DNA from: Escherichia coli
Lineage (GTDB): Bacteria; Pseudomonadota; Gammaproteobacteria; Enterobacterales; Enterobacteriaceae
Length of the DNA: 64,000 bases
Reading direction: 5' to 3' (one strand)
NCBI RefSeq assembly: GCF_022846255.1
Contig: NZ_AP025682.1
Shown here: positions 547 through 18,030 of the stretch, in pieces
Numbering within the stretch: the stretch's first letter is position 1
Layout of the letters: each line of letters begins with the position of its first letter
Notes under the pieces: generated by a model
Seen by the model: the letters and a program-made list of their open reading frames with translations, nothing else
What the model was told of the DNA's origin: nothing
The model's database searches: none
Program-made: the position numbers and the translations under genes

Positions 547-1440
547 ATGTACTACTCAAAGTTTCTTGAGAAACACAAATCCCCCCTCAGCCACGCACAA
601 TGGTTGCGCTTGCGCTATATTGAGCGCCAGCTACTGTGGGAACGAAAAGTCACTTCGCGCATGATTGCTGAAGAGTTTGGCGTCTCGGCGCAACAAGCTC
701 GTACTGATGTAAGAACCTATATGGAGGTCGCTCCAGGCAATGCTATTGAGAAGGGGGCCGGCCGAAAAGGGTATTTCCCCAGTACGACGTTTACGCCTGT
801 TTTGCTGGGAGACAACGATCTGGTCTGGCGTGCGACGGTAGAATTTCAACCGCCGCAAGCGGCCCACGCGCAGGAAATCCCGCTCATCCATCGCGCCGTG
901 CATAGCCGCACGCTGGCAATTTTTTTGTCAGCAATCGAACAGAAAGGACAAGTAAAAGTGACTTATGCGTCAATGGAAAACCCGGAAGGCATATCTCGTA
1001 CACTAAGCCCTACGGTAATTATCACCGTTAACGGGCGTCAGCATGTGCGAGCCTATGACTGGGGAAGTTCGGCGTTTAAGGACTTTGTTTTGGCGCGATT
1101 TCTGGACTCGCCGGAACTGATTGTTCCTGCACCCGCCCCGCCACGCAAAGATACCGCGTGGGAGGTCATAATCCCCGTGCGTTTTATCGCAAATCCAACA
1201 CTAAACAAAGCGCAACAAGAGGTAATTAAGCGGGACTATTTACTTGAACCCTCTGAATTCAACATTCGTGCACCAATGATTTTTTATTTATGCCCTGAAA
1301 ACAATCTGCCTAAAACAGATGATGAATATGCACAAGCTACTGACGCCAGCAGCCACGGCCCCTTTATCTACCCTGTTCTAGCTGTGCACGCCCAAACAGG
1401 GGAGCCTATTCATAAGTACCGCCATGCAGGTGAGAGATAG
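547..1440 (+). CDS. wHTH + WYL-domain transcriptional regulator (BrxR/CapW-like)
   Basis: The N-terminal segment ...VTSRMIAEEFGVSAQQARTDVRTYMEV... looks like a winged HTH. The central segment VKVTYASMENPEGISRTLSPTVIITVNGRQHVRAYDWGSSAFKDFVLARF fits the WYL-domain pattern (beta-rich, R.Y..... F.L.R). A hairpin at 1477-1503 follows the stop. Confidence 0.55.
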   Translation: MYYSKFLEKHKSPLSHAQWLRLRYIERQLLWERKVTSRMIAEEFGVSAQQARTDVRTYMEVAPGNAIEKGAGRKGYFPSTTFTPVLLGDNDLVWRATVEFQPPQAAHAQEIPLIHRAVHSRTLAIFLSAIEQKGQVKVTYASMENPEGISRTLSPTVIITVNGRQHVRAYDWGSSAFKDFVLARFLDSPELIVPAPAPPRKDTAWEVIIPVRFIANPTLNKAQQEVIKRDYLLEPSEFNIRAPMIFYLCPENNLPKTDDEYAQATDASSHGPFIYPVLAVHAQTGEPIHKYRHAGER

Positions 1441-1619
1441 ACATTCTGTTTACTAATAATTTATAGCCATTTTCTGCTCCTGCATCAGAGATATGATGCA
1501 GGAATATTAAATACCAGCCACCTATAAATTATGATTTATTAATTTCTGATTCAGTTAAATCCCTCTGAAAATAGACCCGTTTTAGTTCCATGCATCTTTA
1601 GAAATTCCGACCAAATAAT

Positions 1620-1930
1620 GGGGTCGGCAAACATCTATTTGAGACGTTGGTTCTCATCCTCAAGATCCTTGATTATTTTAATATCAGAAGATTCCATACC
1701 GCCGTATCTGGACTTGCAGTTGTAGTAAGTGGCTTAAGATAAGCCGGCCTCCCGGCAGACATCTTTAACAGTTTGCCCGTATTCAAGCGATTTAATCACG
1801 GCGATAATCTGATTCTCAGTAAAAGGGACTTTACGCATAGCGATCTCCTTCATTGGCAGATTGATTATGCCGGAGGATCTCTAAATGTTAATGGCACGAT
1901 TATGCGGGATATTTACAATACCAGTCCAAC
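1620..1930 (-). mobile_element. IS3-family insertion sequence fragment (orfA remnant with two in-frame stops, 3' part deleted)
   Basis: Minus-strand translation from the ATG at 1848 gives MRKVPFTENQIIAVIKSLEYGQTVKDVCREAGLS*ATYYNCKSRYGGMESSDIKIIKDLEDENQRLK*MFAD. This is the conserved IS3-family OrfA HTH/leucine-zipper sequence, broken by TAA at 1734-1736 and a TAG further on. No orfB follows. A TG-initiated end lies near 1928-1930, abutting the truncated integrase. Confidence 0.65.
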
Positions 1931-1948
1931 CCTCAGCTTACTGCAATG

Positions 1949-2818
1949 TCAATCAAGAGGGATGGTCCACATTGACGTATCAAAATCGATCTCTGACCAG
2001 CGAGCAAAACGTAGCTCACTGGAGCGAATAAAGATAAGCAGAGTGAGTTCCGTTGCCCAGCGGGTTAGCGGCCTGCCGGTATAGCCGTCTATTTTCTCAA
2101 GTAACTCAGGGATGCGCTTTAACTCCAGCGCCGGACGATGCTGTCGATTACTGGAAGCAACCGCCCCCGCCATCTCTTGTGCCGGGTTATAATCAATTAA
2201 TCCACTTTGCACTGCATAACGCATGATGGCCGTGGTGCGCTGTTGAAGGCGGGAAGCCACTTCAAAACGTCCAGATTTCTCCACGGCTTTAATGGGAATT
2301 AACAGATCGCGGGTGCCCAGTTCAGCAATATTGCGAGCAACAATTGTTGGGAAGATATTGTCCTCCAGGCTCTTTTTTCCACGATTAGCATGATCTTCCG
2401 ACCATTTTTGGTTGGTTACGAGCCACTCTCTGGCAACCTTCTCGAAAGTAATAATCTCTTTCGCCTGCTCTTCTTTCACAGCACGTTTATGCTCACGAGG
2501 ATCGATACCAGCAGCGACCAGCTTTCTGGCCTCTTCCCTTTTCTTCCGCGCATCCGCCAGCGAAACATCCGGGTAAACGCCGAACGCCATCAAATGTTGT
2601 TTACCACCAAAACGGAAACGAAATCGCCAATACTTTGAACCGCCAGGTTTTACAAGTAAAGACATGCCGTCGCCGTCAACAAGTGAATACTCTTTCTCCT
2701 CAGGTTTTGCAGGACGAACTTTAGTATACGTTAGGGCTATAGTGGTCTTCCTTCCATTGGTATCTCGTGAGTATACAAGCAATATCGAATCGGCAAATAT
2801 ACTTATAAGTATACTCAC
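1949..2818 (-). pseudogene. P4-type tyrosine integrase, inactivated (start codon lost, C-terminal catalytic half deleted)
   Basis: It aligns by eye to the intact island integrase (e.g. RFEVASRLQQRTTAIMRYAVQSGLIDYNPAQEMAGAV vs RLEVASRLQQRTTAVMRYAVQNGLIDYNPAQDMSGAI). The position matching Met1 (MALT...) is ATA at 2738-2740 (IALT). Homology stops at ...SEIDFDTSMWTIP, before the HxxR/Y catalytic region, where the IS fragment begins. Confidence 0.8.
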
Positions 2819-2903
2819 AAGCCTGTTGATGTGGGTTGAGTCAGGTTGACTTCAGTTGAGGAGAAAAGCTGGAAAAGCCTTGCGTAGCGCGGATTTCAGG
2901 CAT

Positions 2904-2927
2904 AAAAAAAGACCTCAGTTGAGGTCT
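2904..2927 (-). terminator. rho-independent terminator (displaced native leuX terminator)
   Basis: An 8-bp stem AGACCTCA/TGAGGTCT with a run of 7 T on the minus strand, lying immediately after the partial tRNA 3'-end repeat. Confidence 0.55.
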
Positions 2928-2940
2928 ATTTACATACTTT

Positions 2941-2963
2941 TGGTGCGAAGGCCGGACTCGAAC
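2941..2963. repeat. distal att direct repeat: copy of the leuX 3' end
   Basis: TGGTGCGAAGGCCGGACTCGAAC matches the 3' end of the tRNA at 21030-21053 (TGGTGCCGAAGGCCGGACTCGAAC) except for one missing C. Confidence 0.85.
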
Positions 2964-2990
2964 ATATTAATTATCCCGTTGTATTTAAGG

Positions 2991-3200
2991 CTATTTTATC
3001 AAAATCATTATTGAAGTACCATCATTAATACCATCATAGGTATTGTTCTCCTTTGGCAACAGTTCTTTGATATCGAAATACTTTAACGAACTTTTTATGA
3101 CATCATACTTTGAAGAAAAAATCACATACTGATTTTCATCCAGTACATCTTGCAAGACAAGGTATAAAACAGGGACTACGATTAAAAATAGCAAAGTCAT
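2991..3200 (-). CDS. hypothetical small protein with N-terminal hydrophobic helix
   Basis: The ORF alone (69 aa, MTLLFLIVVPVLYLVLQ...). No recognisable family, and the region is very AT-rich. Confidence 0.2.
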   Translation of the reverse strand: MTLLFLIVVPVLYLVLQDVLDENQYVIFSSKYDVIKSSLKYFDIKELLPKENNTYDGINDGTSIMILIK

Positions 3201-3685
3201 TCACTAAATGAATTCAAAATCAGTGATGTTCTTATCTGCAAGAATATAATATATTTAAAAGATTATAAGCAATATATAAATAATAATATAGCTTTAAAAA
3301 AACACACATGAATTAGAAGTTAAATACATTAATTAAAGAAACAAATAAGTAAGAATTTTGTTTTTAAATAACTCATGCAAACGCATCGTTTATTTATATT
3401 AAAGGAAAATGATGAAATCCAATCTAAATTTAAATAGCTACATTACAAACGAATAGAAAAAGAAGCATTTTCCATGTTAAACTACTATCTTGGTGAAGAC
3501 AGGGGGTATAGCCTTCTGCGGTAGCCTACGCTCTTCGAATGCAAAGCAAGAAAATAACCTTTATAATCAAATTGTTATGCAATGCGCTTGTAGAGCAAAG
3601 GTATCTTAAACGAATAGGTTTAACAGTTAAAGCCTCTTTACATAGGCTGAACAAGGGCAGTACTTGAAAATGATAAAATTGGGGT

Positions 3686-5371
3686 ATGTTTAAAATTATG
3701 AATGCCCATAGTTTAGAGATGAGAAAAGAGTTAGGAGCATATTATACTCCAAGTGCTCTTAGTCAAGTGATGTCAGATTGGGCAATTAGAAGACCAACTG
3801 ATAAAATACTTGAGCCAAGTTTTGGAGGCTGTGGCTTTTTAGAAAGCTGTGAAAAGAGCCTCATGGAGATAGGCTGCATAAACCCAATGGAAAATTTATT
3901 TGGGGTTGATGTAGACCAAAAAGCCTTTGATACTCTCAAAAAAAAATATGGGCATTTATTAATAAAAAAACATTTCATTTTAAGTGATTTCATTAACGTA
4001 TTTCCAAAAGATTTTGGCATTGAAGATTTTGAGGTTATCATTGGGAACCCTCCTTATATCTCTATGCATAATATGAGTTATGAACAAAGGAAGTCCTGTG
4101 AAAAAGTTTTTGCTGACTCACCTTTTAAAACAAAAACATTAGGACGCAATGCAAGTCTTTGGGGGTTTTTCTTACTCCATGCATTAAGCTTCATTCGAGA
4201 AAATGGACGAATAGCGTGGGTATTACCGAGTAGTTTTTTAAATGCCTATTATGCGAAAGAGCTTATAAGAATTTACAAAAATCATTTTAACCATCTAAAA
4301 ATAATAAAGATAAATGAAAGACTTTTCAAAAATGAAGGTGCCGATGAAATGTCAGTACTTTTTTTATGCGATGAGTTTCACAGGACACCTATCAATAATG
4401 GATACGTTTCAATTGGATTTGCTGACACATTAAATGAACTAACCAGCATAATGACTGGAACTAAAGAAAACAAATTAAATAGCTCTGAAAATTACAAATA
4501 TAATATATTAGATATTGACACATTAAATGTGATATCGTCTATAACAGAACATAAGTACAGTTTAAAAATACAGGATATTGCTGATATAAAGATTGGGATG
4601 GTAACCGGCATGAACAACTTCTTTATATTGGATCAAAATCAAATTTTAAAACATAATTTAGACAATAAACATTTTAGACCAGTTATTTCACGATTTTCAC
4701 ATTTGAAGGGAATTCACCACACATTAAAAAGACATACGAAGTTAATTGCAGACAATAAAAAAGGATTGCTATTACACGTCAGTCCAGATGATTTATATGA
4801 AAAACATAGTCCGTTGAGAAAATATTTATCACAAGTTGATAGAAAAGAACGAGTCAAAAACCGCACATTCAAAAAACGAAAAAAGTGGTTTCAACCAGAT
4901 GATGGTATTTACCCAGACGCATTTTTTTCATATATGGTTCATGAGTTTCCCAGAATGATATTAAATAAAGGGAAAGTTAACTGCACTAACTCAATACATC
5001 GTATCTTTTTCAAAGATATAGCATCTAATAAATTAAAAAAAGCATGTTGCATATCTCTTTTATCAACATTTTCACAACTTTCTGCCGAACTTGAAGGTCG
5101 GTCATATGGCTCAGGTGTGCTAAAAATAGAGCCTACCGCAGGAAAGAACATATCATTCTTAATTAAAGATGATTTAATACACGAGTTAAGCAACTTAAGT
5201 AAAGAAATAGATCAATTGCTTTTAAATAATGAAACAAGCAATGCCACTGCTTTAGTTGATAAGTTTTTTGTTGATAAGGGACTAATTAGCTTAGATGAAT
5301 TGAAAAGTCTTAAAAAAGGGTTATTCAGATTAAGAAAAGATCGATATAAAGGGGTCAAAAATTATGAGTGA
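3686..5371 (+). CDS. N6-adenine DNA methyltransferase, gamma class (Eco57I/TaqI-like) with its own C-terminal target-recognition domain
   Basis: Motif order is GAYYTP (aa 17-22), then the AdoMet motif I EPSFGGCGF (aa 43-51), then the catalytic motif IV NPPY (aa 121-124). A C-terminal TaqI-like specificity signature is present: IKIGMVTGMNNFFIL. Confidence 0.85.
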   Translation: MFKIMNAHSLEMRKELGAYYTPSALSQVMSDWAIRRPTDKILEPSFGGCGFLESCEKSLMEIGCINPMENLFGVDVDQKAFDTLKKKYGHLLIKKHFILSDFINVFPKDFGIEDFEVIIGNPPYISMHNMSYEQRKSCEKVFADSPFKTKTLGRNASLWGFFLLHALSFIRENGRIAWVLPSSFLNAYYAKELIRIYKNHFNHLKIIKINERLFKNEGADEMSVLFLCDEFHRTPINNGYVSIGFADTLNELTSIMTGTKENKLNSSENYKYNILDIDTLNVISSITEHKYSLKIQDIADIKIGMVTGMNNFFILDQNQILKHNLDNKHFRPVISRFSHLKGIHHTLKRHTKLIADNKKGLLLHVSPDDLYEKHSPLRKYLSQVDRKERVKNRTFKKRKKWFQPDDGIYPDAFFSYMVHEFPRMILNKGKVNCTNSIHRIFFKDIASNKLKKACCISLLSTFSQLSAELEGRSYGSGVLKIEPTAGKNISFLIKDDLIHELSNLSKEIDQLLLNNETSNATALVDKFFVDKGLISLDELKSLKKGLFRLRKDRYKGVKNYE

Positions 5372-7673
5372 AGATATTCTTTTTTTGAAGGATAAGATGA
5401 AAGCCCTCCTGGATAATGAGGCTCTCGATTATGATAAAGTATTAGAAACAGCAGTAAAAATCACCGAAAAAGACAACAACAATATTAGATTTTCTGTAGA
5501 TGCGAATTTAGTTAGAAGATTAGGTGAGCAGTTAGTCGCTAAAAAAACTACTGCTGTCAGTGAATTGGTGAAAAATGCTTATGACGCAGATTCGACATTA
5601 GTAAATGTATATTTCGAATTGAACGAAGCAAATCCTCGAATAGTCATATTCGATGACGGCACAGGTATGTCAAAGGAAGATATTATCAATGGATTCATGC
5701 GAATAAGCACAAGTGAAAAAGAAGATAACTCTGTTTCAGAACGATATCAGAGACTAAGAGCAGGTAGAAAAGGTATTGGGCGTTTTTCTACACAGCGATT
5801 AGGAAATTATTTAAAAATAATTACCAAGCAAGAAAATGAAGAGTTAGGATATTTAATAGAAATTAACTGGCAGCAGTTTTCAAAAAAGAAAAATATATCC
5901 TTCATTGCTAACACTATCTCAAAAATCGATGTGGATTTCATTCATGGAACAAAAATAATAATAGAAGATCTGAATGATAAAGATTGGTCTGATGGGAACA
6001 TAAAAACGGCTTATAAATATATTAAGAGCATTATAAATATTGCCCCAAGCGAGACAGATCCAGGTTTCCAAGTAAAGTTCTATTATAAAAATGCCAATGG
6101 CTATGAATTAGTTGCAGATGAGAAAACTGAAATTTTTTCTGATAGTGATGCTCATATTACAGCAACACTTGAAAATGGAAATGCTGTAGTGAGAGTTAGC
6201 AGTGAAACCCTTGGCATAAAAAATGAAAGCATAGATGTATGGTATGATGAAAAAAATAACATACGAAAATTCTCACATATAAACTCTCCAGTAAAGCTTG
6301 ATGCATACTATTTCTCATTAGCAACAGTTAACTCCAGAAAACAAGCGGCATATTTACGTGAAAATGGCGGAATAAAAATCTATCGAAATGGATTCAAGGT
6401 TTCTCCTTATGGAGAGCAGTATGATGACTGGACGGCTCTTGATGACTCGGTTCGAAGGAGAAAGATATTACCCCCTCATGGTAATCAAAACTTCTTTGGA
6501 CACGTCAAAGTTGAAGACCTAAATGGAATAGACTTTGAAGAAACGTCCTCAAGGGAAGGTCTGATTCATACCGATGCCTTTCAAGAACTTCGCCTCTTTG
6601 TATATAAAGCACTGACGGCTGCGGTAATAAGAATTAGTGAAGCCAGAAATATAAAAATAAATCCAAATGACCGTAGCTATGTTAAAGAAACTAAACCAAC
6701 AATATCAGTCAAAGATAAATTAAATATTGTATCTGAAACGATAAGCTCGGTTAGTAAATTGGTAGATGCAGCAACATCTGTTGATGACGTTTCAAGTGAT
6801 GGTGTCATTAATAACATTGAAGATAAAAGTATAAGAAACAAAATTATTGAAGATCTCCATGAAGCCGCAGATGAGCTAAAACAAGCGAGTGTGATATCTC
6901 AATCTTTAATCGATGAAATTGAGCTTCTTAGAGTGCTTGGCGCTATGGGCCTTGCTATTGGTGAGTTTACACACGAAATAAATTTATCAATAACAAGTTT
7001 GAGTATTAACGTTCAAAACCTTAAACAGTCTAAATTATTAGAGGAAGATAGAGACTCTGCTCTAAATAGCCTTGAAAATAATATTGCAACATTAAAATCA
7101 TTTACTAAATTTTTTGACAGTACTATACGTGAGAATGTAAACAGAAATAAGAAAGTTATTGAGATAAGAGACTCTATTGAGCCATTTTATGAATCGATGA
7201 AACCAATAATAGAACGCAAAGGAATTCAGTTTGCAATACATTATGAAGGTTATGAACTTTTTACGAAGCCGATTCATGTTTCAGAGCTATATTCTGTATT
7301 TATAAATCTCTTTACGAATGCATATAAAGCAATACTTCGTTCTGGAACAAATCCACGAAAAATGTCTTTAACTGCGAAAAAAGATAGTGAAGATATAATT
7401 ATCCGATTCGAAGATAGCGGTGATGGAATTGAACCTGCAAATAGAGAAAGAGTTTTTGAGCCTTTCTATACAACAAGTACACCATCAGGACCTTTTGAAA
7501 GTGATGATTTATCATTAAAAGGAATGGGATTGGGGTTATCAATCGTACGTGATCTCGTTGAATCCATGTCTGCAGAAATATCTATAGTTGATGCATCCGA
7601 TGGTTTTACAACGTGCTTTGAGTTGAGAATTCCAAAAGCTGATGATAAGGAAATACCAGATGACATCTATTAA
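5364..7673 (+). CDS. double-GHKL protein: N-terminal MORC/MutL-like ATPase module + coiled region + C-terminal histidine-kinase core (H-box, N, G1, G2 boxes)
   Basis: N-terminal module: ELVKNAYDAD (N71, D74), DDGTGM (aa 97-102), GRKGIGRFS (aa 134-142). C-terminal module: IGEFTHEINLS (H537), INLFTNAYKA (N652), EDSGDGI (aa 683-689), GMGLGLSIV (aa 720-728). No predicted TM segment. The start overlaps the methyltransferase stop by 8 nt. Confidence 0.7.
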   Translation: MSEDILFLKDKMKALLDNEALDYDKVLETAVKITEKDNNNIRFSVDANLVRRLGEQLVAKKTTAVSELVKNAYDADSTLVNVYFELNEANPRIVIFDDGTGMSKEDIINGFMRISTSEKEDNSVSERYQRLRAGRKGIGRFSTQRLGNYLKIITKQENEELGYLIEINWQQFSKKKNISFIANTISKIDVDFIHGTKIIIEDLNDKDWSDGNIKTAYKYIKSIINIAPSETDPGFQVKFYYKNANGYELVADEKTEIFSDSDAHITATLENGNAVVRVSSETLGIKNESIDVWYDEKNNIRKFSHINSPVKLDAYYFSLATVNSRKQAAYLRENGGIKIYRNGFKVSPYGEQYDDWTALDDSVRRRKILPPHGNQNFFGHVKVEDLNGIDFEETSSREGLIHTDAFQELRLFVYKALTAAVIRISEARNIKINPNDRSYVKETKPTISVKDKLNIVSETISSVSKLVDAATSVDDVSSDGVINNIEDKSIRNKIIEDLHEAADELKQASVISQSLIDEIELLRVLGAMGLAIGEFTHEINLSITSLSINVQNLKQSKLLEEDRDSALNSLENNIATLKSFTKFFDSTIRENVNRNKKVIEIRDSIEPFYESMKPIIERKGIQFAIHYEGYELFTKPIHVSELYSVFINLFTNAYKAILRSGTNPRKMSLTAKKDSEDIIIRFEDSGDGIEPANRERVFEPFYTTSTPSGPFESDDLSLKGMGLGLSIVRDLVESMSAEISIVDASDGFTTCFELRIPKADDKEIPDDIY

Positions 7674-8763
7674 CCTACTTTATATCGATGATGATCAGCC
7701 TCAGCAAGTAAAGGGTTTAATTGAAGCAATAATCAGTAAAGCGAGTTTTGATTTAAATATAACTCATAAACCGCCGACGAAAATGAGTGAAATAGCCATA
7801 GAGTTGAGACAAGGTTATGATGGTATCATCATAGATCAAAAACTTGACAGCTTTGTTGAGGGAGTAGAACCAGTTGATTACTTTGGTGCCGCGTTAGCAC
7901 AAAATTTGCGAACACTCATGGCGGGTAAGTCAGATAATATATCTTATAAGCCAATAATTTTACTCTCTCTCGAAAGCTTATTAATTGAATATTATAATCC
8001 CGATTCAAGCTCGCATGATCTATTTGATTTAGTTTTGAGTAAAAGCATATTAGAACAACCAGAATTGTTAGAAAAAAAAGTTCACTTAATAAAATCTATT
8101 GTGAATGCTTACAAACGTGCACATTCGGAAGACTCGTTATATCAATTGCTTTCTCTGAGCAGTAATTATTCATTGCTTGATAAAAGATTTGAAATATATA
8201 TTTCTCAGTATGATAAAGATATACATAAGCTCGTCACATCCATACACTCCACACTTCTGAGAAGTAGTGGCATGTTAGTTTCTGAGATAACTTTGGCAAC
8301 CAGACTGGGTATTAATATTGAAGAATCGCCAGACTGGCACCAAGTAATTGGGCACCTTGAGGAATATAAATACAATGGCATATTCTCTGATTATTATAAA
8401 AGATGGTGGTGGGCAGATGTAGAGTTGTGGATAAATAAAAAGCTTAACTGCCCAATAATTAAAGGATTAACCTCAGAAAAAAGAGTGGAGATCATCAAAG
8501 AAAAACTTGGCTTAGAACGATTGATGCCAATTCATAGCGTACATCCAGGCCAAAGCACCAAGTTTTGGGTTAATTGTATCATCAGTAAAGAACCTCTTGA
8601 TACAATAGATGCTCTTCGTGCATCATCTATGGAATTAAAACCTTGGGAAGATGATAAATACCTTTCAATTAAAACAGTGTTAGAGAGACGGGCCGAAAAA
8701 TATAAAGTACATCCAGAAGATAGAACAAAATTGGATCGAATTCGGGCGAGGTTTAAATTATAA
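7660..8763 (+). CDS. receiver (REC)-like domain protein with uncharacterised ~230-aa C-terminal domain
   Basis: Numbering from the MTSINLLY start. The REC signature residues are in the right order: LLYIDDD (D10-12), GIIIDQKLD (D59), PIILLSL (S103), LVLSKS (K128). The C-terminal part (…YKRWWWADVELWINKK…) matches nothing I recognise. The ORF overlaps the upstream stop by 14 nt. An alternative start at 7642 is possible. Confidence 0.5.
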   Translation: MTSINLLYIDDDQPQQVKGLIEAIISKASFDLNITHKPPTKMSEIAIELRQGYDGIIIDQKLDSFVEGVEPVDYFGAALAQNLRTLMAGKSDNISYKPIILLSLESLLIEYYNPDSSSHDLFDLVLSKSILEQPELLEKKVHLIKSIVNAYKRAHSEDSLYQLLSLSSNYSLLDKRFEIYISQYDKDIHKLVTSIHSTLLRSSGMLVSEITLATRLGINIEESPDWHQVIGHLEEYKYNGIFSDYYKRWWWADVELWINKKLNCPIIKGLTSEKRVEIIKEKLGLERLMPIHSVHPGQSTKFWVNCIISKEPLDTIDALRASSMELKPWEDDKYLSIKTVLERRAEKYKVHPEDRTKLDRIRARFKL

Positions 8764-9506
8764 TGAACAATAATACAACTTTGTTAGACGATATGTGTAG
8801 GCTCAGGGACTTTTTATATGATAGCCGCATATGCCCAGATATTAATCCTCTCAACCGTTTAATCAGTAAACTTAATGCAAATCTCCACTCCGAAACAGGG
8901 GAGGACTTTGAATACTCTTTAGACGATTTAGTATTTTATCTTAGCGAAAAATCTGGAACAATTTGTCCGACCCAAATTACACCCAAAGAAAACCCTATTG
9001 AAATACATTTGGAACTTATATTAAAAAGTGAAGGCCCTTATGAATTTTCGAAGATTAAAGAACTTTCAGGGCAATTACGACTTAAAGCTGAGTGGATCAA
9101 TGACACAACAGAAAAAATTGAGATAAAAACATCACATAGTGCTTGGCATTTTGATTATCATGTTCCTCAAATGGGGGATGGCGTAAATTCATTTACTCAT
9201 CCTCAATTCCATTTACAAAATGGAGGAAACAGGCTGACTGATAATTTAAATGACTATGGAGAGTTAATGATTCTTGATGCTCCAAGACTACCTTTACCTC
9301 CTATGGATGTGATATTAGCCATTGACTTTATTATTTCAAATTTCTTTGGTTCTATTTGGCAACAAGCATTATGTGATTCAGAATACATTGATGTAGTTAA
9401 AAGAGCACAAAAAGCATGGTGGAAACCTTATTATGAAGGTATAAGTCAACACTGGTCTGGCAATGGCTCAGGAATATCCAATATCCTAATTCCAAACCTT
9501 CTGTAG
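8763..9506 (+). CDS. hypothetical protein, last gene of the operon (His-rich segment)
   Basis: ATG overlaps the upstream TAA (TAATG). 247 aa. Contains SAWHFDYHVPQMGDGVNSFTHPQFHLQNGG. No family recognised. Confidence 0.5.
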   Translation: MNNNTTLLDDMCRLRDFLYDSRICPDINPLNRLISKLNANLHSETGEDFEYSLDDLVFYLSEKSGTICPTQITPKENPIEIHLELILKSEGPYEFSKIKELSGQLRLKAEWINDTTEKIEIKTSHSAWHFDYHVPQMGDGVNSFTHPQFHLQNGGNRLTDNLNDYGELMILDAPRLPLPPMDVILAIDFIISNFFGSIWQQALCDSEYIDVVKRAQKAWWKPYYEGISQHWSGNGSGISNILIPNLL

Positions 9507-9716
9507 TGTATCAAAATCTGTTAACCATCTCCAATTACGAATAGCAATATTTATATAAAACTAATTTTTTATTTTAAACAACTTCAGCAAGGGCTAACTC
9601 TCAGCATCTCCTTCGGTGATACTTTGAGTTGCTCCTTGTTTTTTCGCCCTTTGGTTGAAAAAATTAAAAGCAAAACCAACCCTATACATTGACTTTTTCA
9701 GCATCTATCATATAAA

Positions 9717-9747
9717 TAAAATAAGCATAATGGACATGCTTATTTTA
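9717..9747. promoter_or_regulatory. 12-bp inverted repeat upstream of mobC (candidate oriT / mob promoter element)
   Basis: TAAAATAAGCAT-n7-ATGCTTATTTTA, about 25 nt before the mobC-like start. Location is typical for small-relaxase oriT, but no nic consensus was recognised. Confidence 0.3.
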
Positions 9748-9771
9748 CTTTACTATATGAAAGGAGTTCAT

Positions 9772-10185
9772 ATGAATGATAGGAATCATACTTTTAATAA
9801 GTTCGAGCCATTCAGAAGTTGTAGCTATGAAAATTTTACTTCTGCTAAAACACTCTCCCAGCAGACACGTTCTCATTGTATTAGTATCAGATTAAATGAT
9901 GCCGAGTTATCTTACGTTGATGGCTTACGAGAAGATCTCAACCGTGCTGTTTGGATACGTATGTCAGCATTGAATCGTCTCCCTTCCAAAATTCCTGAAA
10001 TAAATCTAATTGTCTGGAAAGACCTTGCCAAAGCATCTCAGAATCTGAATAACCTCGTTCAGCATCTCAACACTAAATCACACGATAGTCCTTTTACTAT
10101 CACCGAAATTTATACGGTACAAAAAAGAATAAAAGCACTAAGAGATGCCCTTCTGTCAGCAAATCGATCTGTCAGTGATAAATAA
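9772..10185 (+). CDS. MobC-like relaxosome accessory protein
   Basis: AAGGAG lies 6 nt upstream of the ATG at 9772. IRLNDAELSYVDGLRE... followed by a helical C-terminus is the usual MobC/ribbon-helix-helix pattern. The stop overlaps the relaxase start (TAATG). Confidence 0.6.
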   Translation: MNDRNHTFNKFEPFRSCSYENFTSAKTLSQQTRSHCISIRLNDAELSYVDGLREDLNRAVWIRMSALNRLPSKIPEINLIVWKDLAKASQNLNNLVQHLNTKSHDSPFTITEIYTVQKRIKALRDALLSANRSVSDK

Positions 10186-11372
10186 TGAAAGGGATGCAAA
10201 AAATCCGCAGAGGAAAGAGTTTTGCTGGTGTCGTCCTCTATGCGTTAAAGCCCGGTTCTCATCATAAAAAAGACCCTATCGTGATCGGTGGAAATATAAC
10301 GATAGTTGGCAATGCCGCTAAAGATCTGATCGCTGAATTTGATAGCACCAAACAGCTTCGCCCTGACGTGCAAAAGGCTGTTTGGCACAACTCGCTTCGC
10401 TTACCTAAAGGTGAATCACTAACGGCTAAACAGTGGTCTGAAATAGCAGATGATTACATGTCCCGCATGGGCTTCTCTGAAACGCATCTCAGATGCTACG
10501 TCCTACATGACGACGAAGATGGCCAGCACATCCATATCATCGCCAGCAGAGTGTCTCTTGATGCCGGAAAGCTCTACCTCGGCAGGAATGAGAACCTGGC
10601 AAGCACGAGAATAATTCAGCAACTTGAAAGAAATTACAATCTGACAAGAACCAAAGGGCCAGGAGCTAAAGCATCTACATCTTCTCTTTCCTCTAAACCG
10701 AAACATAAAAAATCACGTAATGAGGCTATGTTAGAGGAGAGAACTGGTGAACCATGCCCTAAATCCATCATCCAAAGGGCTATAGATTCGATAACATTAA
10801 ATCCTATAGCAATTGATGACTTCGTTGAAAAGCTGAATAGCATAGGGATTACGGCGAAAAGCAATATTTCTTCAACTGGCAAGATGAATGGATTTTCCTT
10901 TGAATGCAAAGGTGTTGTGTTCAAAGCTTCCCAGCTTGGCAAGAAGTATAGTTGGAAGAACCTGGAATCAATGATTTCAATGAATTACAACTCACACATT
11001 GGTGATGAAAAACCTGTCATCCCTGAACCTGCTGCCCATCGCAGCAACGAAGCTGTCATACCTATAGTGGAAGACTATTCTGATGAAAAGATTTACCCTG
11101 AGATAAGGGTACCCTTACCAAGACCTGACACAGCGCCCACAAAACCTACAAGCATGACAATGCGTTGGATCGCAACCATACCTTATCTTGTGAGTGTTAT
11201 TAGCGCACTTAAAACGATGCGTATCCCCTTTCTAAAGGCGTTCAATGGCCCAAGGAAGTTCTTTTCCGTGTCCATGATTCACCTGTCCTCTGTAAGCCTG
11301 AAACAGACCAAAACGAATAATTTCAAACCAAAAAGTTCCCACCAAAAGGCCCACAAGCCCCTTCTCCCCTGA
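10185..11372 (+). CDS. mobilisation relaxase (MobA/VirD2-type relaxase/nuclease domain)
   Basis: N-terminal FAGVVLYALKP (candidate catalytic Tyr). Conserved VWHNSLRLPKGESL block. Histidine triad YVLHDDEDGQHIHIIASRV. The C-terminal third is low-complexity and may be degenerate. Confidence 0.75.
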   Translation: MKGMQKIRRGKSFAGVVLYALKPGSHHKKDPIVIGGNITIVGNAAKDLIAEFDSTKQLRPDVQKAVWHNSLRLPKGESLTAKQWSEIADDYMSRMGFSETHLRCYVLHDDEDGQHIHIIASRVSLDAGKLYLGRNENLASTRIIQQLERNYNLTRTKGPGAKASTSSLSSKPKHKKSRNEAMLEERTGEPCPKSIIQRAIDSITLNPIAIDDFVEKLNSIGITAKSNISSTGKMNGFSFECKGVVFKASQLGKKYSWKNLESMISMNYNSHIGDEKPVIPEPAAHRSNEAVIPIVEDYSDEKIYPEIRVPLPRPDTAPTKPTSMTMRWIATIPYLVSVISALKTMRIPFLKAFNGPRKFFSVSMIHLSSVSLKQTKTNNFKPKSSHQKAHKPLLP

Positions 11373-11580
11373 TTTCTCCACAGATAAACGATCGTTATAA
11401 TCGATCGATTTATTTATATTGATAGTCAATAACAATCAATAGGTAAATAATCGATCGGTACAAGCAATTTGCTATGTCCTTAGAAGTGTTCAAAATGTAC
11501 TTTCATGCATAAATCGGATAATAGGTTGATTTTACTAGCCTATTTTTCTATCCACGTATCGAACATGCAGGGACTGAAGT

Positions 11581-12171
11581 ATGAGATATCTCATGATGAA
11601 GCGTGTAATGTTAGCAATCCTTCTTCCGTTTATTGTTGGATGTTTATTTGGTGCTAAAGCATTATCAGAGTATTGGGTTGTGTGGTTTTTTGTTTGTGCA
11701 ATGTTGATGATCACAGCCTGGGGCGTGTGGTTAAAAAATAAAAACAGAGGTTCCAGCTTCAGCTACCTGAATGATAATGAAGATGGTGTATTTATCTACA
11801 AATTTCATAATCAAGAGATGCGTTTAGATAAAGCCAAAAAAGAGCTTTATTTAAAAGATGGGTTAAACGAAAAAACCTACACTTTTTCCGATGTTGAAAG
11901 CTGGGAATATAAAATTAGCACAGGTGGTCAGATCCTCACTTCAGGTCTTAACCCTACAACTAACTTGATTAACAATAAGATTCTTGGTGAAAACATTAAT
12001 GACACCGGCTTCTTTATCAAAGTTAAAGACATCAGAAACCCTGAGTGGCATATTCGATTCTTCCCTCAAGAAGGATCTTATAAAGATCAGAGGGGATTAA
12101 TTAGCTTAAAAAAACAGATGATGCAGTGGATGACCGTTTTTGACTTAATCGTAAATGCTGATACAAAGTAA
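11581..12171 (+). CDS. hypothetical membrane protein (two N-terminal hydrophobic helices, possible lipobox IVGC)
   Basis: ORF with N-terminal MKRVMLAILLPFIVGCLFGAK and YWVVWFFVCAMLMITAWGVWL. The soluble C-terminal domain is unassigned. Confidence 0.45.
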   Translation: MRYLMMKRVMLAILLPFIVGCLFGAKALSEYWVVWFFVCAMLMITAWGVWLKNKNRGSSFSYLNDNEDGVFIYKFHNQEMRLDKAKKELYLKDGLNEKTYTFSDVESWEYKISTGGQILTSGLNPTTNLINNKILGENINDTGFFIKVKDIRNPEWHIRFFPQEGSYKDQRGLISLKKQMMQWMTVFDLIVNADTK

Positions 12172-12182
12172 GGAAAACAAGA

Positions 12183-12473
12183 ATGAAAAAAACCATGCTA
12201 CTATTATTAGCTTCAATGTCGCTGACAGGTTGCAACAGTGAACCATCCGATGCAGATATTTCAAAAGCCATGCAGAGCTTTATGAGTGAGATGCATGGTA
12301 CCCTGAACTCGTCTAAAAAACTTGCGTGTAAAGATATAGAGAGTGATGGCAGTTATCTCTGCTCTGTAGAGTTCGATGCTAAACTTCCAATCGTGGGCCA
12401 TAGAGAATCGACGCTAGAATTAAAGTTTATTAAATCCGATGACTCCTGGAAAGCAATGGCTCCATCTAAATAA
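12183..12473 (+). CDS. small lipoprotein
   Basis: AAGGAA SD. Signal peptide plus lipobox MKKTMLLLLASMSLTGC. Confidence 0.6.
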   Translation: MKKTMLLLLASMSLTGCNSEPSDADISKAMQSFMSEMHGTLNSSKKLACKDIESDGSYLCSVEFDAKLPIVGHRESTLELKFIKSDDSWKAMAPSK

Positions 12474-12566
12474 ACTTAATTATATTTGACAATAGAAAAA
12501 TAGTACGTCATAGATAGTAAATTGATAACAACCAGTGGGTTGAGCCACTGGCTGTTATCCCAATGG

Positions 12567-12644
12567 TTAATACACGGATGTACTAACCACCATTAAAAGG
12601 ATAAACAACATCACCTTTAATGCACGGGAGCGTTTTTTAGACAT
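12567..12644 (-). CDS. 25-aa basic/hydrophobic peptide (MSKKRSRALKVMLFILLMVVSTSVY), candidate small membrane toxin
   Basis: Below the ORF-track cutoff; found by hand. AAGAAGGAG sits 6-7 nt upstream of the ATG. The peptide has a charged N-terminus followed by one hydrophobic helix. Confidence 0.35.
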   Translation of the reverse strand: MSKKRSRALKVMLFILLMVVSTSVY

Positions 12645-12730
12645 ACGCCACTCCTTCTTTTTCATCATCAACCTTATTGTTGGTGATGTTGCCTCTTTGG
12701 GCTGATGCAGATTATCATTTTAGAATACTA

Positions 12731-12757
12731 AAAGCATCCTTTCGGATGCTTTTTTTC
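12731..12757 (+). terminator. rho-independent terminator
   Basis: AAAGCATCC-tttc-GGATGCTTT followed by TTTTT. Confidence 0.6.
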
Positions 12758-12850
12758 GCCTTGAAAATATTAGCAAGATAATAATCCATAAAGGATAATA
12801 TAAAAACCAAAATAATATGCTACGGTAGTTGTTATAAAAATCACATAAAA

Positions 12851-13273
12851 CTACAGTCCATATTTTTTCCTTTTATCCTTCATCAATAATTCTCTTTTTA
12901 GGGTAGAAGCCTCATGTTTCCTTCTCTCATTAATATAGACTTTTTCGGTTCTACTACCATTGCTCACAATGAAATTGATAAGTGAAGAGCATACGTTTTT
13001 CATACGCTCTTTATCGAGCATGTCATTTTCAATATTATTGATATTGCAGTAATAAGAAAGTAGTAAAAAATTCAACACTACTTCCCTGTTTGAGAACGTT
13101 AGTTTTTCTATTTCAGGCTGGTATTTAATGTAGAACCCGGCACAAAACAGGTATGATTGTTCGATAATTTGTTGCTCTGAGAAGTCTGATTCAGAGAGTT
13201 TATCAACGAATCGATCAAGTAGAAGAAGATACCTTTCCATCAAATGAATATTTATTTTTTCCATAACATGCAT
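12851..13273 (-). CDS. hypothetical protein
   Basis: ORF only. The likely start is the second ATG (13264, MEKINIH...), which has AAGGA 8 nt upstream. Confidence 0.4.
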   Translation of the reverse strand: MHVMEKINIHLMERYLLLLDRFVDKLSESDFSEQQIIEQSYLFCAGFYIKYQPEIEKLTFSNREVVLNFLLLSYYCNINNIENDMLDKERMKNVCSSLINFIVSNGSRTEKVYINERRKHEASTLKRELLMKDKRKKYGL

Positions 13274-13357
13274 CCTTGCAATTTATTTTGCCATCCTGAC
13301 AATTAAATAAATACCATAATTATTAATCACGTCAATAGTTAAAACCTATCTATTTTA

Positions 13358-13756
13358 TTAAAGGTATTTTGCAGGTAACGGATTATTAAGTTCTTCAATC
13401 GTTATTTGTTTAAGGTGAGCATTATAAAGCCATACTTTGAACTGCTCTAAATAGCGTTCATTTAATGCCTTCAAAGCCTCATTTTCTGCTTCAAGTCTTC
13501 TAATTCGTTGAGAAGCCACTTTTAAATTAGCAGGTTTTACAGTATGTATTGCACCAGATTTGATAGTGGCCTTTTTCACACTGAAGCTTTCTGCAATCCT
13601 TACATGACTACTTAAGGATTGTCTTGATGGTCTTTTCCCAATAATCCTTACTAACCTGTCGCACAAAGCATCCCAGGTTAGTTTTTCATCTATAGACCAT
13701 GTGTTAATAACATCTACAATCTTCTTCTCATGATAACCATTTATATGCTTAGCCAT
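13358..13756 (-). CDS. small accessory protein of the recombinase module (coiled-coil C-terminus; TnpC-like position)
   Basis: Its start directly abuts the stop of the upstream recombinase gene (13757). RRLEAENEALKALNERYLEQF is a heptad-like segment. The call is positional only. Confidence 0.4.
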   Translation of the reverse strand: MAKHINGYHEKKIVDVINTWSIDEKLTWDALCDRLVRIIGKRPSRQSLSSHVRIAESFSVKKATIKSGAIHTVKPANLKVASQRIRRLEAENEALKALNERYLEQFKVWLYNAHLKQITIEELNNPLPAKYL

Positions 13757-15388
13757 TTATTCTCCTTTTTTTATTCTCTTATGGAATTCATACCATCTAT
13801 CAGCATTTATGTTCCCATCATTTTTATCATACAGTGTTCTTTTTGAAATTTTATCGTGAATTTTTGAAATCGTTTCGTTATCTAAACCAGAATTCTCAAT
13901 CGGATAATGTTCACACGGCTTAAACGCATATGAGTGCTTGCAGTAGCCATGTTTTGATACCAGTACTGCACCACTACTAAGTGAATCAAACTCATTAAGA
14001 ACCACCACTGGAATATCCTTTATTCTGTGCTCATTAACACACACTGATAACTTTTGTTCTCTTATTGCTTTAGACATTTGAAGATGCGATCTGTGGTCAT
14101 AAGAAAAATTTTGAGAAATAAGCTTACGTCCAGACCAGCGAGCAATACTAAACTCATCCATACCATTTATTTGAGCAAAAGTGTTGAGAAGATGCCTCAG
14201 TTGATGTGTTCTTAGCAAATATGGGCTACCATCATCATTTATATAACCATGTCTTTTAAATACATTTAAATATCCTTTTATATAATCAGAATCAACGATA
14301 TCAGTTTTAAAAAAATTCGTTGTAGGTCTGAATAACTTATCTAACATTTCCTTTTTATTTTGATTTAACTGTCCTTCAGTTAACAAGCAAAGCGCATTAG
14401 AATATTTGATTTTCTTCTCTCTATCATACCAAAAGAGATCTGGAGGTATATTTTCTTTAAGGGTTCCCATCGTTGAATTAGAGTAATTCTTTTGAATTTC
14501 AGCAGCCAATAATCTCGCTTGACTTGATAATTCTTTTAATCTGCTAATAGCCTTTTTTGCTACAGGTATCATTAAAGTTGGAATCCATTTTATATTGCCT
14601 TCATACCCTTTTGCTGAAAAAAATCTTAAACCGTATCTTTGAATGCCCTTTCCATCACATTCTGTAATTTCACAATCCACTGGCAAAGCTAAAATTTCCG
14701 ATATCCTACTCGGTGCACACATAAGTAAAGCAAGCACAGATGTAGTAAATATATCTCTTGACGATAATTGTTCATCCCGCTTTGAAAAAATCTCAGCAAT
14801 CGCAATAACTGATTTGATATCAGGCAATCTAGAATGGCCTTCCAGTGAAGAATCATAACCAGTCCAAGACTGAGTAATCCTATACCTAATTGGACTTATC
14901 CAAAATAAATAAGATGAGTTAGTCATCCTATTATCATTTAAAAATGAACTCAATTTCTCAAGTTCTTTCCCAATAGCAAATGCATGTGCTTTAGAATACT
15001 TTTCAGAGGCTATCCTTATGCATTCATCAAAGATTGAATTGTTGCAATAGTTTACATTAGCTTCCATATTGATTTTAAGTAAAACGAATTCGACAATCTT
15101 CAACATTGATAATGTTGAGTGTTTCGTCTTAGATTTATTGAATGAATGCACATGCAACATATATGCTTTAGCAAAATTAATAAAGCTATCATCTAAGCAT
15201 TCTTTGCTGTTTAGGTTGTTTTTTGAGTTAAACTTAGTAAACCTATATAAACCTTTCCATTTATTGCTTTCCCAAGAAGTTGTTAAATTATTATTAGAAA
15301 TAGTACTCTTACAAAACTCGATGAACTTAATAACATTATCGTGAGGGTTGTTTTTATTGCTTGGTTCAAAAATAAATATATTGTTCAT
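13757..15388 (-). CDS. tyrosine recombinase, third of trio (543 aa)
   Basis: Catalytic signature in order: CAPSRISEILAL (Arg), THQLRHLLNT (HxxR), NFSYDHR (Tyr). Overlaps the upstream gene by 4 nt. Confidence 0.7.
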   Translation of the reverse strand: MNNIFIFEPSNKNNPHDNVIKFIEFCKSTISNNNLTTSWESNKWKGLYRFTKFNSKNNLNSKECLDDSFINFAKAYMLHVHSFNKSKTKHSTLSMLKIVEFVLLKINMEANVNYCNNSIFDECIRIASEKYSKAHAFAIGKELEKLSSFLNDNRMTNSSYLFWISPIRYRITQSWTGYDSSLEGHSRLPDIKSVIAIAEIFSKRDEQLSSRDIFTTSVLALLMCAPSRISEILALPVDCEITECDGKGIQRYGLRFFSAKGYEGNIKWIPTLMIPVAKKAISRLKELSSQARLLAAEIQKNYSNSTMGTLKENIPPDLFWYDREKKIKYSNALCLLTEGQLNQNKKEMLDKLFRPTTNFFKTDIVDSDYIKGYLNVFKRHGYINDDGSPYLLRTHQLRHLLNTFAQINGMDEFSIARWSGRKLISQNFSYDHRSHLQMSKAIREQKLSVCVNEHRIKDIPVVVLNEFDSLSSGAVLVSKHGYCKHSYAFKPCEHYPIENSGLDNETISKIHDKISKRTLYDKNDGNINADRWYEFHKRIKKGE

Positions 15389-16710
15389 AATGCTCTCCAG
15401 GGATTGAATTTTTTACACGTTAAGCATTTCAAATCCTCTTTCGTATCTTCTAATAAGAAAAATGCATCTGAAACATACTTGATAAAAAAGTTCTTGTTTT
15501 CTTCAATCTCTATGCCCATAAGTATATTAGATAAGGGGTTAAAAAACGCACTTAGTCTCTTATCGATGTCATAAACGTTGTCAGGATTGTTTTTTATATA
15601 TATCATAGAAGAGTTTACTGATTTATGATCTAAGGCTTTAGCAATCACCTCAATTGAGGCTCCTTCGTTAGCCAGTCGACTTCCTAACGTATATCTGAAT
15701 CTTCTAGCATTAAGTTCTATATAGCTGTTAGTCCTTTCTGACCTAACATCGAATTTTGACGGAAAGTGTTTTAATAGTTTTGACATAACTGAATTTTTCA
15801 TATGGAAAAAATCTGTTGTTAAATCAGATAAAAAATCCTCAATCCTTTTTGTTTCCGTAATCTTATCTAAATTCATGAAGATTGGTAATTCGCCTCTATA
15901 GTTATTAATCCCAACACTGAATTTATCTTCAACAAACGCCTGATTTTGATTAATTAGCATTGATAAACTGTCATATAAGAACGGTTCTATCATTACCATA
16001 TTAAATTCTTTTCTGAAACATTTTCTTTGTTTTACTTTTGGTACATTCAAAAAGCACCCTCTCTCATTTTTAATGAGATCTTTAGCTTTTAGAGATATCA
16101 ATTGTAATGGCCTTCTTCCTGTTATTGCCAGCAAAAGGATATAACAATACAAAAAGCATTGAATTTTCTTCTCATGATAAAATTTTCCAACGGCGTTAAT
16201 AATGTTATTGAATTCCGTTTCAGTTAAAGGTCCTTTATTTGGATCTCGTCTTTTAACTGCATCTCCTGTTTGGTTTGGAATGATTTTTATTTTCTCCAGC
16301 ATTCTAATGGCAGTCGCATCTACCCCAGGGTAATTGAGATTTTTCCATTTAGTGATGAAAGCCTTAATTGAGTTTAGTTTGTAGTTTCTTTCTGAACCTA
16401 AATAAACATTCAATTGATATATTGCTTTGTCATCAATAGTATCGATGGTCATTGCACCAAACCACTTATAAAATAGATTGTTAATATTTTGTATATAAAA
16501 AGAACTATATTCAGACGCATAGTAAGCTAATGTTTTTAAGTAGCTAAGTTTCATTTTTGTAGGCATTCTATCTACAACTTTATGAGGGTATACGCAGTTT
16601 TCTTTATCAAGTTGCCATTTCTTATCTGACAGTTTGAAACTATATCTATTCATCTTAGCAAAAAAAATTTGCTCACTTTCAATACATTTTATTTCCACAT
16701 TAAACCCCAC
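15385..16710 (-). CDS. tyrosine recombinase, second of trio (441 aa)
   Basis: ITGRRPLQLISLK (Arg), ARRFRYTLGSRLANEG (xxR box), VNSSMIYIKN (Tyr). Overlaps the upstream gene by 11 nt. Confidence 0.65.
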   Translation of the reverse strand: MGFNVEIKCIESEQIFFAKMNRYSFKLSDKKWQLDKENCVYPHKVVDRMPTKMKLSYLKTLAYYASEYSSFYIQNINNLFYKWFGAMTIDTIDDKAIYQLNVYLGSERNYKLNSIKAFITKWKNLNYPGVDATAIRMLEKIKIIPNQTGDAVKRRDPNKGPLTETEFNNIINAVGKFYHEKKIQCFLYCYILLLAITGRRPLQLISLKAKDLIKNERGCFLNVPKVKQRKCFRKEFNMVMIEPFLYDSLSMLINQNQAFVEDKFSVGINNYRGELPIFMNLDKITETKRIEDFLSDLTTDFFHMKNSVMSKLLKHFPSKFDVRSERTNSYIELNARRFRYTLGSRLANEGASIEVIAKALDHKSVNSSMIYIKNNPDNVYDIDKRLSAFFNPLSNILMGIEIEENKNFFIKYVSDAFFLLEDTKEDLKCLTCKKFNPWRAL

Positions 16711-17905: not shown

Positions 17906-18030
17906 TTTGACCTCATTCTTTACAAATTAATATCACTCTCACTTATTAAATATATTCCAATTCAAAATAATTCAAATTTTTTACAATGGCTTTAGTTTAT
18001 TTGGTATATATATTAATGGCTTGAAAAAAT

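Follow-up and report, generated by a model that had tools for sequence, protein, structure and literature searches.

The Escherichia coli contig NZ_AP025682.1 (assembly GCF_022846255.1) was analysed in a stretch of 64,000 nucleotides, called the window in the following, of which positions 3686–9506 hold four genes on the plus strand: a DNA methyltransferase gene (gene 1), a gene for a kinase-like ATPase (gene 2), a gene for a receiver-domain protein (gene 3) and a gene for a member of a conserved protein family (gene 4). Genes 2, 3 and 4 form a cassette which is a functional unit, and the methylase belongs to a number of partners that can replace each other, since the cassette also pairs with the phosphorothioation modules SspBCD and DndCDE. 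The cassette is thus found with three kinds of DNA-modification module, in the slot normally filled by restriction modules. The locus is read here as a modification-coupled defence against invaders, in which genes 2–4 would be the restriction arm; a probability of about 0.6 is given to this reading.

The gene 2-3-4 cassette and its partners

All junctions between the four genes are overlaps. Gene 1 (3686–5371) and gene 2 (5364–7673) share eight nucleotides, read directly as ATGAGTGA at 5364–5371; gene 2 and gene 3 (7660–8763) share 14 nucleotides, the ATG of gene 3 at 7660 being located upstream of the TAA of gene 2 at 7671–7673 and preceded immediately by a Shine-Dalgarno sequence, AAGGAA; gene 3 and gene 4 (8763–9506) are joined by TAATG at 8761–8765. 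A first-pass annotation of this DNA, which had been made from the sequence alone, had reported the same three junctions, and the coordinates of the open reading frames (ORFs) as well as direct reading of the junctions bear it out. A longer version of gene 3, starting at 7642 (ORF 7642–8763), would be an alternative; the start at 7660 was preferred, since all homologues begin with 'MTSI.. LYIDDD' and since PGAP made the same choice in E. coli TUM11353. The overlaps between genes 2 and 3 and between genes 3 and 4 are also present in independently called genes of distant relatives, and therefore this coupling is conserved and not due to chance. A scan of the locus for promoters and terminators was uninformative, as matches were no more frequent than in shuffled sequence.

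The set of loci comprised 67 metagenome loci, which were fetched with a profile of gene 4, three viral contigs and several loci from genomes and plasmids; their ORFs were scanned with hidden Markov models from alignments built in this analysis. Because its degenerate patterns had been drawn too narrowly, a scan of genome contigs with a gene 3 profile gave only two loci; far better results came from searching metagenome contigs with the gene 4 profile. The order gene 2-gene 3-gene 4 is strongly conserved across the fetched loci, being found on one strand in every locus which holds enough upstream DNA. The proposal of the first-pass annotation that the four genes constitute one system can be kept as far as the conserved and coupled genes are concerned, but the unit consists of genes 2–4, and the methylase is replaceable by SspBCD or DndCDE.

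Partners were counted in the 39 non-redundant loci with a full-length gene 2. A methylase of the gene 1 type is located directly upstream of the cassette in 16 of these, and in one more (L079) together with a type IIG-like protein. SspB-SspC-SspD adjoin the cassette in 17 of the 39 loci (SspC with a PADLOC E-value of 0), seven of which possess PbeA and PbeC as well. DndC-D-E was found once (1/39), in a locus where DndA and DndB are also close by; L057, another Dnd locus, is outside the count, its gene 2 being fragmented. PbeABCD is the sole partner in another single locus (1/39); it is a known phosphorothioate-linked restriction partner and not a modification module. The partner was left unresolved in four loci, among them L077, a short contig with an SspE-like GmrSD_N protein at its start. 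In another of the four, L025, genes for ParB_N, SPL-like radical-SAM and QueC/Asn-synthase-like proteins (995–3467, 9575–11338) flank the cassette, and these may represent a further kind of DNA-modification partner.

The methylase is situated downstream of the cassette, not upstream, in a Hymenobacter plasmid and in one of the viral contigs. A more distant version (25% identity) on a Paraburkholderia plasmid shows the same four-gene layout, in the order helix-turn-helix (HTH) gene, Eco57I-type methylase, kinase, receiver-like protein and a protein of 225 amino acids with the sequence 'HYDYEH...HPIFHAQLG', in which the His motif of gene 4 recurs. In L015, SspBCD and the cassette form an isolated six-gene unit, with no other restriction candidate in sight; a known restriction partner is lacking in 84% of sspBCD loci (PMC8092258). 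When a neighbour-joining tree of gene 2 was constructed, the phosphorothioate-linked cassettes were recovered as one clade and the methylase-linked cassettes as several deep clades. Since the tree groups by partner, the type of partner is inherited and co-evolves with the cassette, and is not randomly shuffled.

These distributions bear on a different explanation, namely that the cassette is an abortive-infection or backup module, which would respond to a phage cue, such as DNA ends, replication intermediates or an anti-restriction protein, by killing or arresting the cell independently of the modification state, with the modification module serving as an independent first line. Defence islands commonly stack several layers, and the cassette shares its locus with PbeABCD in the seven Ssp cases, with Mrr in L009 and, in L077, with the SspE-like gene; in addition, the kinase-to-receiver signalling of the Detocs system can reportedly drive abortive infection. 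Nevertheless, among the loci with enough flanking DNA, the four unresolved ones set apart, none was seen in which the cassette clearly lacked both a modification and a Pbe module. The methylase-linked four-gene units contain no other restriction arm, so that their methylase would be purposeless, and the type of partner follows the phylogeny of the cassette. This explanation is considered improbable.

Two further observations were made in these loci. Decayed copies of the cassette occur in L006 (1772–2541), L041 (6607–8866), L052 and L072; a P2-like prophage has gene 4 as two separate ORFs, two loci have a split gene 2 and one has a broken gene 3. Beside SspBCD and the cassette of L014, a second GHKL system is present at 10741–15204 (minus strand), consisting of an SF2 helicase (558 amino acids), a HATPase_c_3 protein (599 amino acids) and a protein of 316 amino acids; it resembles the MORC-helicase restriction-modification (R-M) loci of Iyer et al. 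2008.

Properties of the four proteins and a proposed mechanism

Gene 1 is predicted to encode a complete, self-sufficient N6-adenine DNA methyltransferase of the gamma class with its own target-recognition domain of the Eco57I/TaqI type, which would be the modification (self-marking) module. The order of the motifs GAYYTP, EPSFGGCGF and NPPY (X - I (FxGxG) - IV), followed by the C-terminal target-recognition domain, the matches above cut-off to N6_Mtase, Eco57I and M_Eco57I_C of Pfam, and a full-length match to the PADLOC model MTase_II (2e-89) agree with each other and with the original assignment of this gene.

Gene 2 is composed of a GHKL ATPase (residues ~40–210), a conserved middle region (~310–410), a DHp region with H537-E538 and a CA domain (640–760); no transmembrane segment was found, and thus the protein should be soluble. 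Pfam recognised HATPase_c_3 at residues 63–187 (3e-27) and HATPase_c at 641–759. In 10 distant homologues, with identities down to 33%, the residues E67, N71 and D74 of Bergerat motif I (ExxxNxxDA) and D97xGxG101 of motif II in the N-terminal ATPase are invariant, likewise the segment G134–G139 of motif III and, in the H, N, G1, F and G2 boxes of the kinase core, H537-E538, N648/N652, D684xGxG688, F698 and G720xGLGL. Profile searches of PDB sequences matched residues 519–761 to the solved histidine kinases HK853 and ThkA (1e-17) and residues 55–121 to MutL (1e-6); residues 42–206 matched the model of the BbrUII/HgiDII restriction-enzyme family (2e-27), covering only the first 170 of its 659 positions. 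The invariant motifs and the profile matches to kinases and to MutL support the description in the first-pass annotation of a MORC/MutL-like Bergerat ATPase combined with a histidine-kinase core. As judged from its sequence, the C-terminal half is a standard DHp and CA kinase core with intact catalytic residues, and a conserved segment 'YRNGFRV', resembling the FVNGR motif of MutL, would point to an S5 transducer of the MutL type. As its sensor, gene 2 would have an ATPase of the DNA-clamp type in place of a ligand-binding domain.

A MutL-like head linked to an adenine methylase could also suggest methyl-directed repair or maintenance of the mobile element, similar to Dam/MutL/MutH, with a partner nicking hemimodified DNA for the fidelity or stability of the element's own replication. 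No MutS- or MutH-like partner was found with Pfam, PADLOC and NCBIfam, however, and the same cassette pairs with phosphorothioation genes. Furthermore, a kinase-receiver output is without counterpart in mismatch repair, and the hotspots in which the cassette resides (see below) are indicative of conflict and not of repair. Such a function appears very improbable.

Gene 3 contains a REC domain in residues 1–130, with D10, D11, D59, S103 and K128. The (beta/alpha)5 fold, the acidic pair after beta1, the Asp after beta3, the Ser/Thr after beta4 and the Lys after beta5 are all present, and the residues of the receiver pocket are invariant among homologues. A phospho-receiver with a further domain had been proposed before for this gene, and the fold and the intact pocket confirm it. 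The C-terminal 240 residues comprise an HTH-like segment (LATRLGI; helices at ~188–232 in the predicted structure) and a small beta-rich domain with many conserved aromatic residues; no family could be assigned to this region.

Gene 4 encodes a protein of 247 amino acids, a candidate effector, which had been regarded as an orphan in the first-pass annotation. This was not borne out: the family of this protein comprises several hundred clusters. A profile search gave 81 clusters in the indexed database, and in the exhaustive database 1002 representatives, 423 of which at E<=1e-30. The family possesses an invariant cluster of His and Asp residues, with the signature W128-H129-x-D131-x-H133 ... 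H146-P-x-x-H150-x-x-x-G-G ... P174-R175 ... P-P180-x-D182 ... D188 ... N193; the fold was predicted with confidence and is without a match in the PDB. Similarity to DUF2290 was noticed. The protein of the window reaches E 0.14 against Pfam DUF2290 (PF10053), i.e., 12 bits compared with a gathering threshold of 25; 5/80 family members match this model (best 2.6e-4), and 7/80 the PADLOC model of DUF2290 (best 5.4e-6). Since only a minority of the members match, these scores indicate a remote relationship and not membership.

Helicase, HsdR/HsdS, Res, PglZ, BrxC, DrmA and nuclease domains were found in none of the four proteins with Pfam, PADLOC and NCBIfam, as the first-pass annotation had stated from motifs. 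Related matches were only partial, involving the N-terminal ATPase of gene 2 and restriction-enzyme models of PADLOC and NCBIfam. Weak matches were obtained between gene 2 and the PADLOC model Aga_Nuclease (E 0.015, with no stretch passing) and between gene 3 and a 5'-3' exonuclease of NCBIfam (E 0.012).

The HTH-like segment LATRLGI in the C-terminus of gene 3 and the lack of a detectable nuclease domain in genes 2–4 would also be compatible with a regulatory two-component system: gene 2 would sense the state of the DNA, gene 3 would be a receiver-HTH transcription factor which tunes the linked modification genes or others, in the manner of an epigenetic switch or a controller protein, and gene 4 would be an accessory protein. 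Epigenetic roles of orphan phosphorothioate and methylase systems have been discussed (PMC8092258, PMC12421847). Several points speak against a regulator. Next to three different modification modules, with which it co-evolves, the cassette fills the slot of a restriction partner; compact units of methylase and cassette reside in phage and transposon defence hotspots, in which there would be no obvious use for a gene that only regulates an orphan methylase; gene 4 is strictly conserved, with its invariant His/Asp cluster and the link to DUF2290; and the sensor head is probably a DNA-clamp ATPase and not a ligand-binding domain. Overall, regulation seems an unlikely function of the cassette.

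For the modification-coupled defence the following sequence of events can be envisaged. Gene 1 would mark the host DNA with N6-methyladenine (m6A) at its own recognition sequence, and genes 2–4 would be a portable 'restriction' cassette which replaces a classical endonuclease. The MutL/MORC-type head of gene 2 would sense unmarked DNA. As a specificity domain is missing from the cassette, it may depend on the partner modification enzyme to recognise the site, by analogy to type I and type III systems and BREX. The MutL/MORC-type ATPase heads of known relatives dimerise around DNA. In gene 2, dimerisation driven by ATP would cause the C-terminal kinase to autophosphorylate H537, and the phosphoryl group would then be moved to D59 of gene 3. 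Activated gene 3 could, together with gene 4, nick, cleave or block the invading DNA. We infer the defence role, the direction and trigger of signalling, the phosphotransfer, and the identity of gene 4 as effector as well as its action. The complete model, in which one phosphorelay-restriction cassette is agnostic to the modification and can be plugged into m6A marking and into phosphorothioate marking by Ssp or Dnd, is put forward more tentatively, being somewhat less likely than not.

Comparison with known systems

Models which name the four-gene system do not exist in PADLOC, NCBIfam or Pfam, and none of the PADLOC models assigns the four genes to a defence system that already has a name. 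The designation 'undescribed' in the first-pass annotation holds in this sense; the locus is not wholly undescribed, however, because a sister pair of kinase and receiver near R-M genes was the subject of a computational account. The families HEF_HK and Response_reg_2 go back to Bellieny-Rabelo et al. (2021; PMC8011034), who derived them from a pair of kinase-like and receiver-like genes with a linkage of 91.6%. In that purely computational account the pair is enriched beside R-M genes, mainly those for C5 methylases, Vsr and HNH. HEF_HK (PF19191) has the same architecture of a soluble kinase as gene 2, with HATPase_c_3, a DHp with His-Glu and HATPase_c; the adjacent Response_reg_2 gene (PF19192) encodes a divergent receiver without another known domain, as does gene 3; and both HEF_HK and gene 2 are linked to paraMORC ATPases and enriched beside R-M genes.

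Membership in these two families was rejected, since the proteins of the window and 22 relatives failed both Pfam models. Gene 2 scored 19.8 bits against HEF_HK, which is below the cut-off of 24.1, and its relatives 12.5–17.1 bits or nothing; Response_reg_2 matched 0/14 members of the gene 3 family and 0/7 more distant proteins in the gene 3 position, at E<=10, 1 or 0.1. With the same architecture and failure of both models, the proteins of the window are regarded as a sister lineage of the HEF_HK/Response_reg_2 pair. The sections consulted of the 2021 results (PMC8011034) do not describe a conserved third protein or pairing with Ssp or Dnd, unlike what was found for the gene 2-3-4 cassette. 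A related set was observed on Campylobacter conjugative plasmids (L085, 41 records; 5989–10442), where a double-GHKL kinase with 26% identity and a response regulator of 340 amino acids adjoin a dcm methylase; a gene 4 homologue was not found on these plasmids, and the set looks like the C5-methylase-linked lineage of the 2021 paper.

In its general plan, i.e., a modification module with a separable restriction module of several genes, the system resembles SspABCD-SspE, SspABCD-SspFGH, DndABCDE-DndFGH and PbeABCD, and the position of the cassette directly after SspBCD or DndCDE is that of SspE, SspFGH or DndFGH. The copy in the window is predicted to mark with m6A, which phosphorothioate systems do not. 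According to PADLOC, which recognised SspC, PbeA and PbeC in the cassette loci and nothing in the cassette proteins, the latter have no relationship to SspE (DUF262/DUF1524), DndFGH or PbeABCD. Identity with SspFGH was suspected from the position after SspBCD and rejected, as a PADLOC match was not obtained and the Walker A feature of SspF and the FtsK-like features of SspH (PMC8092258) are absent. Ssp loci without a nuclease and near a two-component system comprising a histidine kinase were reported in 2025 from Acinetobacter baumannii global clone 2 (GC2), and a new Ssp variant was suggested (PMC12421847); a reappraisal of Dnd from 2024 (PMC10853773) contains no mention of a histidine kinase, a GHKL ATPase, a receiver domain or DUF2290.

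Enzymes of the BbrUII/HgiDII type and VcSduA share with gene 2 a GHKL head with a catalytic Glu and a link to methylases (PMC2292703; PMC12137116). Proteins of this kind carry or adjoin a nuclease, helicase or TIR output, the head of BbrUII/HgiDII-type enzymes and of VcSduA being directly joined to a nuclease in one protein, whereas the output of gene 2 would be a kinase core signalling to a separate receiver. In VcSduA, a Shedu variant in which a paraMORC-type GHKL head controls the defence nuclease, the ATPase mutation E27A abolishes defence (PMC12137116).

Like the four-gene system, Detocs (DtcABC) occurs in a defence context and has a histidine kinase of the cytoplasm together with a receiver-domain protein. 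Detocs comprises a buffer receiver and a nucleosidase effector, whereas here no receiver-only gene and no recognisable nucleosidase are present; moreover, the four-gene system is tied to a DNA-modification module and Detocs is not. Membership was rejected, since PADLOC-DB v2 yielded no Detocs match for genes 2–4 at E<=0.1, and the analogy is therefore one of logic only.

MADS (mad1-8) is an eight-gene defence with epigenetic phage escape (bioRxiv 10.1101/2023.03.30.534895); as a methylase-linked multi-gene defence with a kinase and ATPases it is similar to the four-gene system. The mandatory components MAD6-8 had no match in genes 2–4 (NCBIfam, PADLOC), and the catalytic core of gene 1 reached 24 bits against MAD2, the cut-off being 720 (PADLOC mad2: 8e-16 over the catalytic domain). 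MADS was rejected on account of this sub-threshold match being the only one. Type I and type III R-M, BREX and DISARM were likewise rejected, in agreement with the first-pass annotation: HsdR/HsdS, Res, PglZ/BrxC/BrxL and DrmA/B/C were not found among the four genes, and a PglX match of gene 1 (5e-6) covers the catalytic core of the methylase only.

The remote similarity of gene 4 provides a connection to the Helicase + DUF2290 system (Rousset et al. 2022, PMC9122126), an experimentally validated system of which DUF2290 is a component, and both systems occur in hotspots of the P2/P4 type. A helicase is part of that system and is absent here; gene 4 resembles DUF2290 only weakly and in part, and no activity is known for DUF2290.

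Mobile contexts and possible meaning of the system

The locus is the outermost cargo of an integrative mobilisable element of ~18 kb at leuX, the gene for tRNA-Leu(CAA) (21030–21114, minus strand; located with ARAGORN and in the annotations of TUM11353 and A42), which is the integration site of the island and has integrase genes immediately to its left. A distal att repeat at 2941–2963 is a 23/24-nucleotide copy of the 3' end of the tRNA gene, as was seen by direct comparison with 21030–21053. The GC content is 0.347 inside the island and 0.504 outside, with the drop starting at ~3000, and besides the integrase the island carries two further tyrosine recombinases and a relaxase. These features corroborate the earlier view of the locus as cargo of an AT-rich mobile island at a tRNA gene. 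The backbone of the island, from just past the stop codon of gene 4, is common to ~15 E. coli genomes, and the locus of E. coli TUM11353 is 99.7–99.9% identical to that of the window. In E. coli A42, a sister island at leuX has in the slot of the cassette an N6 methylase, a Dam-like methylase and an HNH endonuclease (L086, 7821–11885).

Proteins that are near-identical or closely similar are on record for Salmonella, Proteus, Pantoea and Rahnella, which argues for horizontal spread. Cassette and methylase of Rahnella bruchi are inserted in the gpA-portal gap of a P2-like prophage, a validated hotspot of anti-phage systems (PMC9122126); in Pseudoalteromonas the cassette is cargo of a Tn7-like element; on the Hymenobacter plasmid (L083, 315–13278) the cassette and its downstream methylase are located beside a gene with a Piwi domain (pAgo) and a DNA methyltransferase of 1118 amino acids; and the three viral contigs also carry it. 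The contexts of the cassette, i.e., P2 hotspot, Tn7 cargo, pAgo neighbour on a plasmid, viral contigs and the R-M slot of the sister leuX island, are defence-like. The computational tests suggested in the first-pass annotation all turned out in favour of its proposal, and a defence role becomes more likely through the modular pairing with phosphorothioation systems.

Other features of the window are given here as context. Mobilisation genes for a small MobC-like protein and a relaxase (9655–11372, plus strand; PGAP annotation of the TUM11353 locus) follow the four genes and are not part of the system. At 13757–18000 (minus strand) a gene for a DNA-binding protein is followed by two overlapping tyrosine-recombinase genes which, in addition to the integrase near the tRNA, amount to an unusual triple-recombinase set. 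Just outside the island, on the minus strand, lie a gene for a WYL/HTH regulator of the BrxR family and a degenerate tyrosine recombinase (547–1440, 1949–2818); in E. coli PD23 the same BrxR gene adjoins a Wadjet-like (JetD) cluster, which suggests tandem defence islands at leuX. Low GC contents of 0.34–0.39 amid ~0.5 were noted at 37001–38000 and 40001–42000, and these regions may be other horizontally acquired segments.

Several points weigh against a modification-coupled defence. Searches with Pfam, PADLOC, NCBIfam, PHROGs and PDB sequence profiles and a fold search did not reveal a recognisable nuclease or toxic domain in genes 2–4. The C-terminus of gene 3 looks like a DNA-binding output, as in an ordinary response regulator of transcription. 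The link of gene 4 to DUF2290 appears weak, with a best E-value of 5e-6 in a minority of the members and 0.14 for the protein of the window. The defence reading does not explain in what way m6A and phosphorothioate could both be read by one cassette. The cassette is very rare in E. coli, being present in 1/5,426 complete genomes. Experimental work on members of the family was not found in the literature searched, which did not cover subscription-only papers.

Should the proposed function be correct, the system would represent a new kind of discrimination between self and foreign DNA in bacteria, with a signalling cascade inserted between the recognition of unmarked DNA and the attack, and it would be the first immunity of the R-M type that is gated by two-component signalling. 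The cassette would also be a candidate restriction partner for part of the nuclease-less or 'orphan' SspBCD and Dnd loci; the question of the missing partner was raised in PMC8092258 and, for Acinetobacter baumannii global clone 2, in PMC12421847. A testable role could be given to a MORC-like ATPase fused to a kinase, and a biochemical activity to the gene 4 family with its predicted fold, which may be relevant for DUF2290 as well. The four-gene version should be easy to clone and to test, since it is compact (5.8 kb) and stems from an enterobacterial host.

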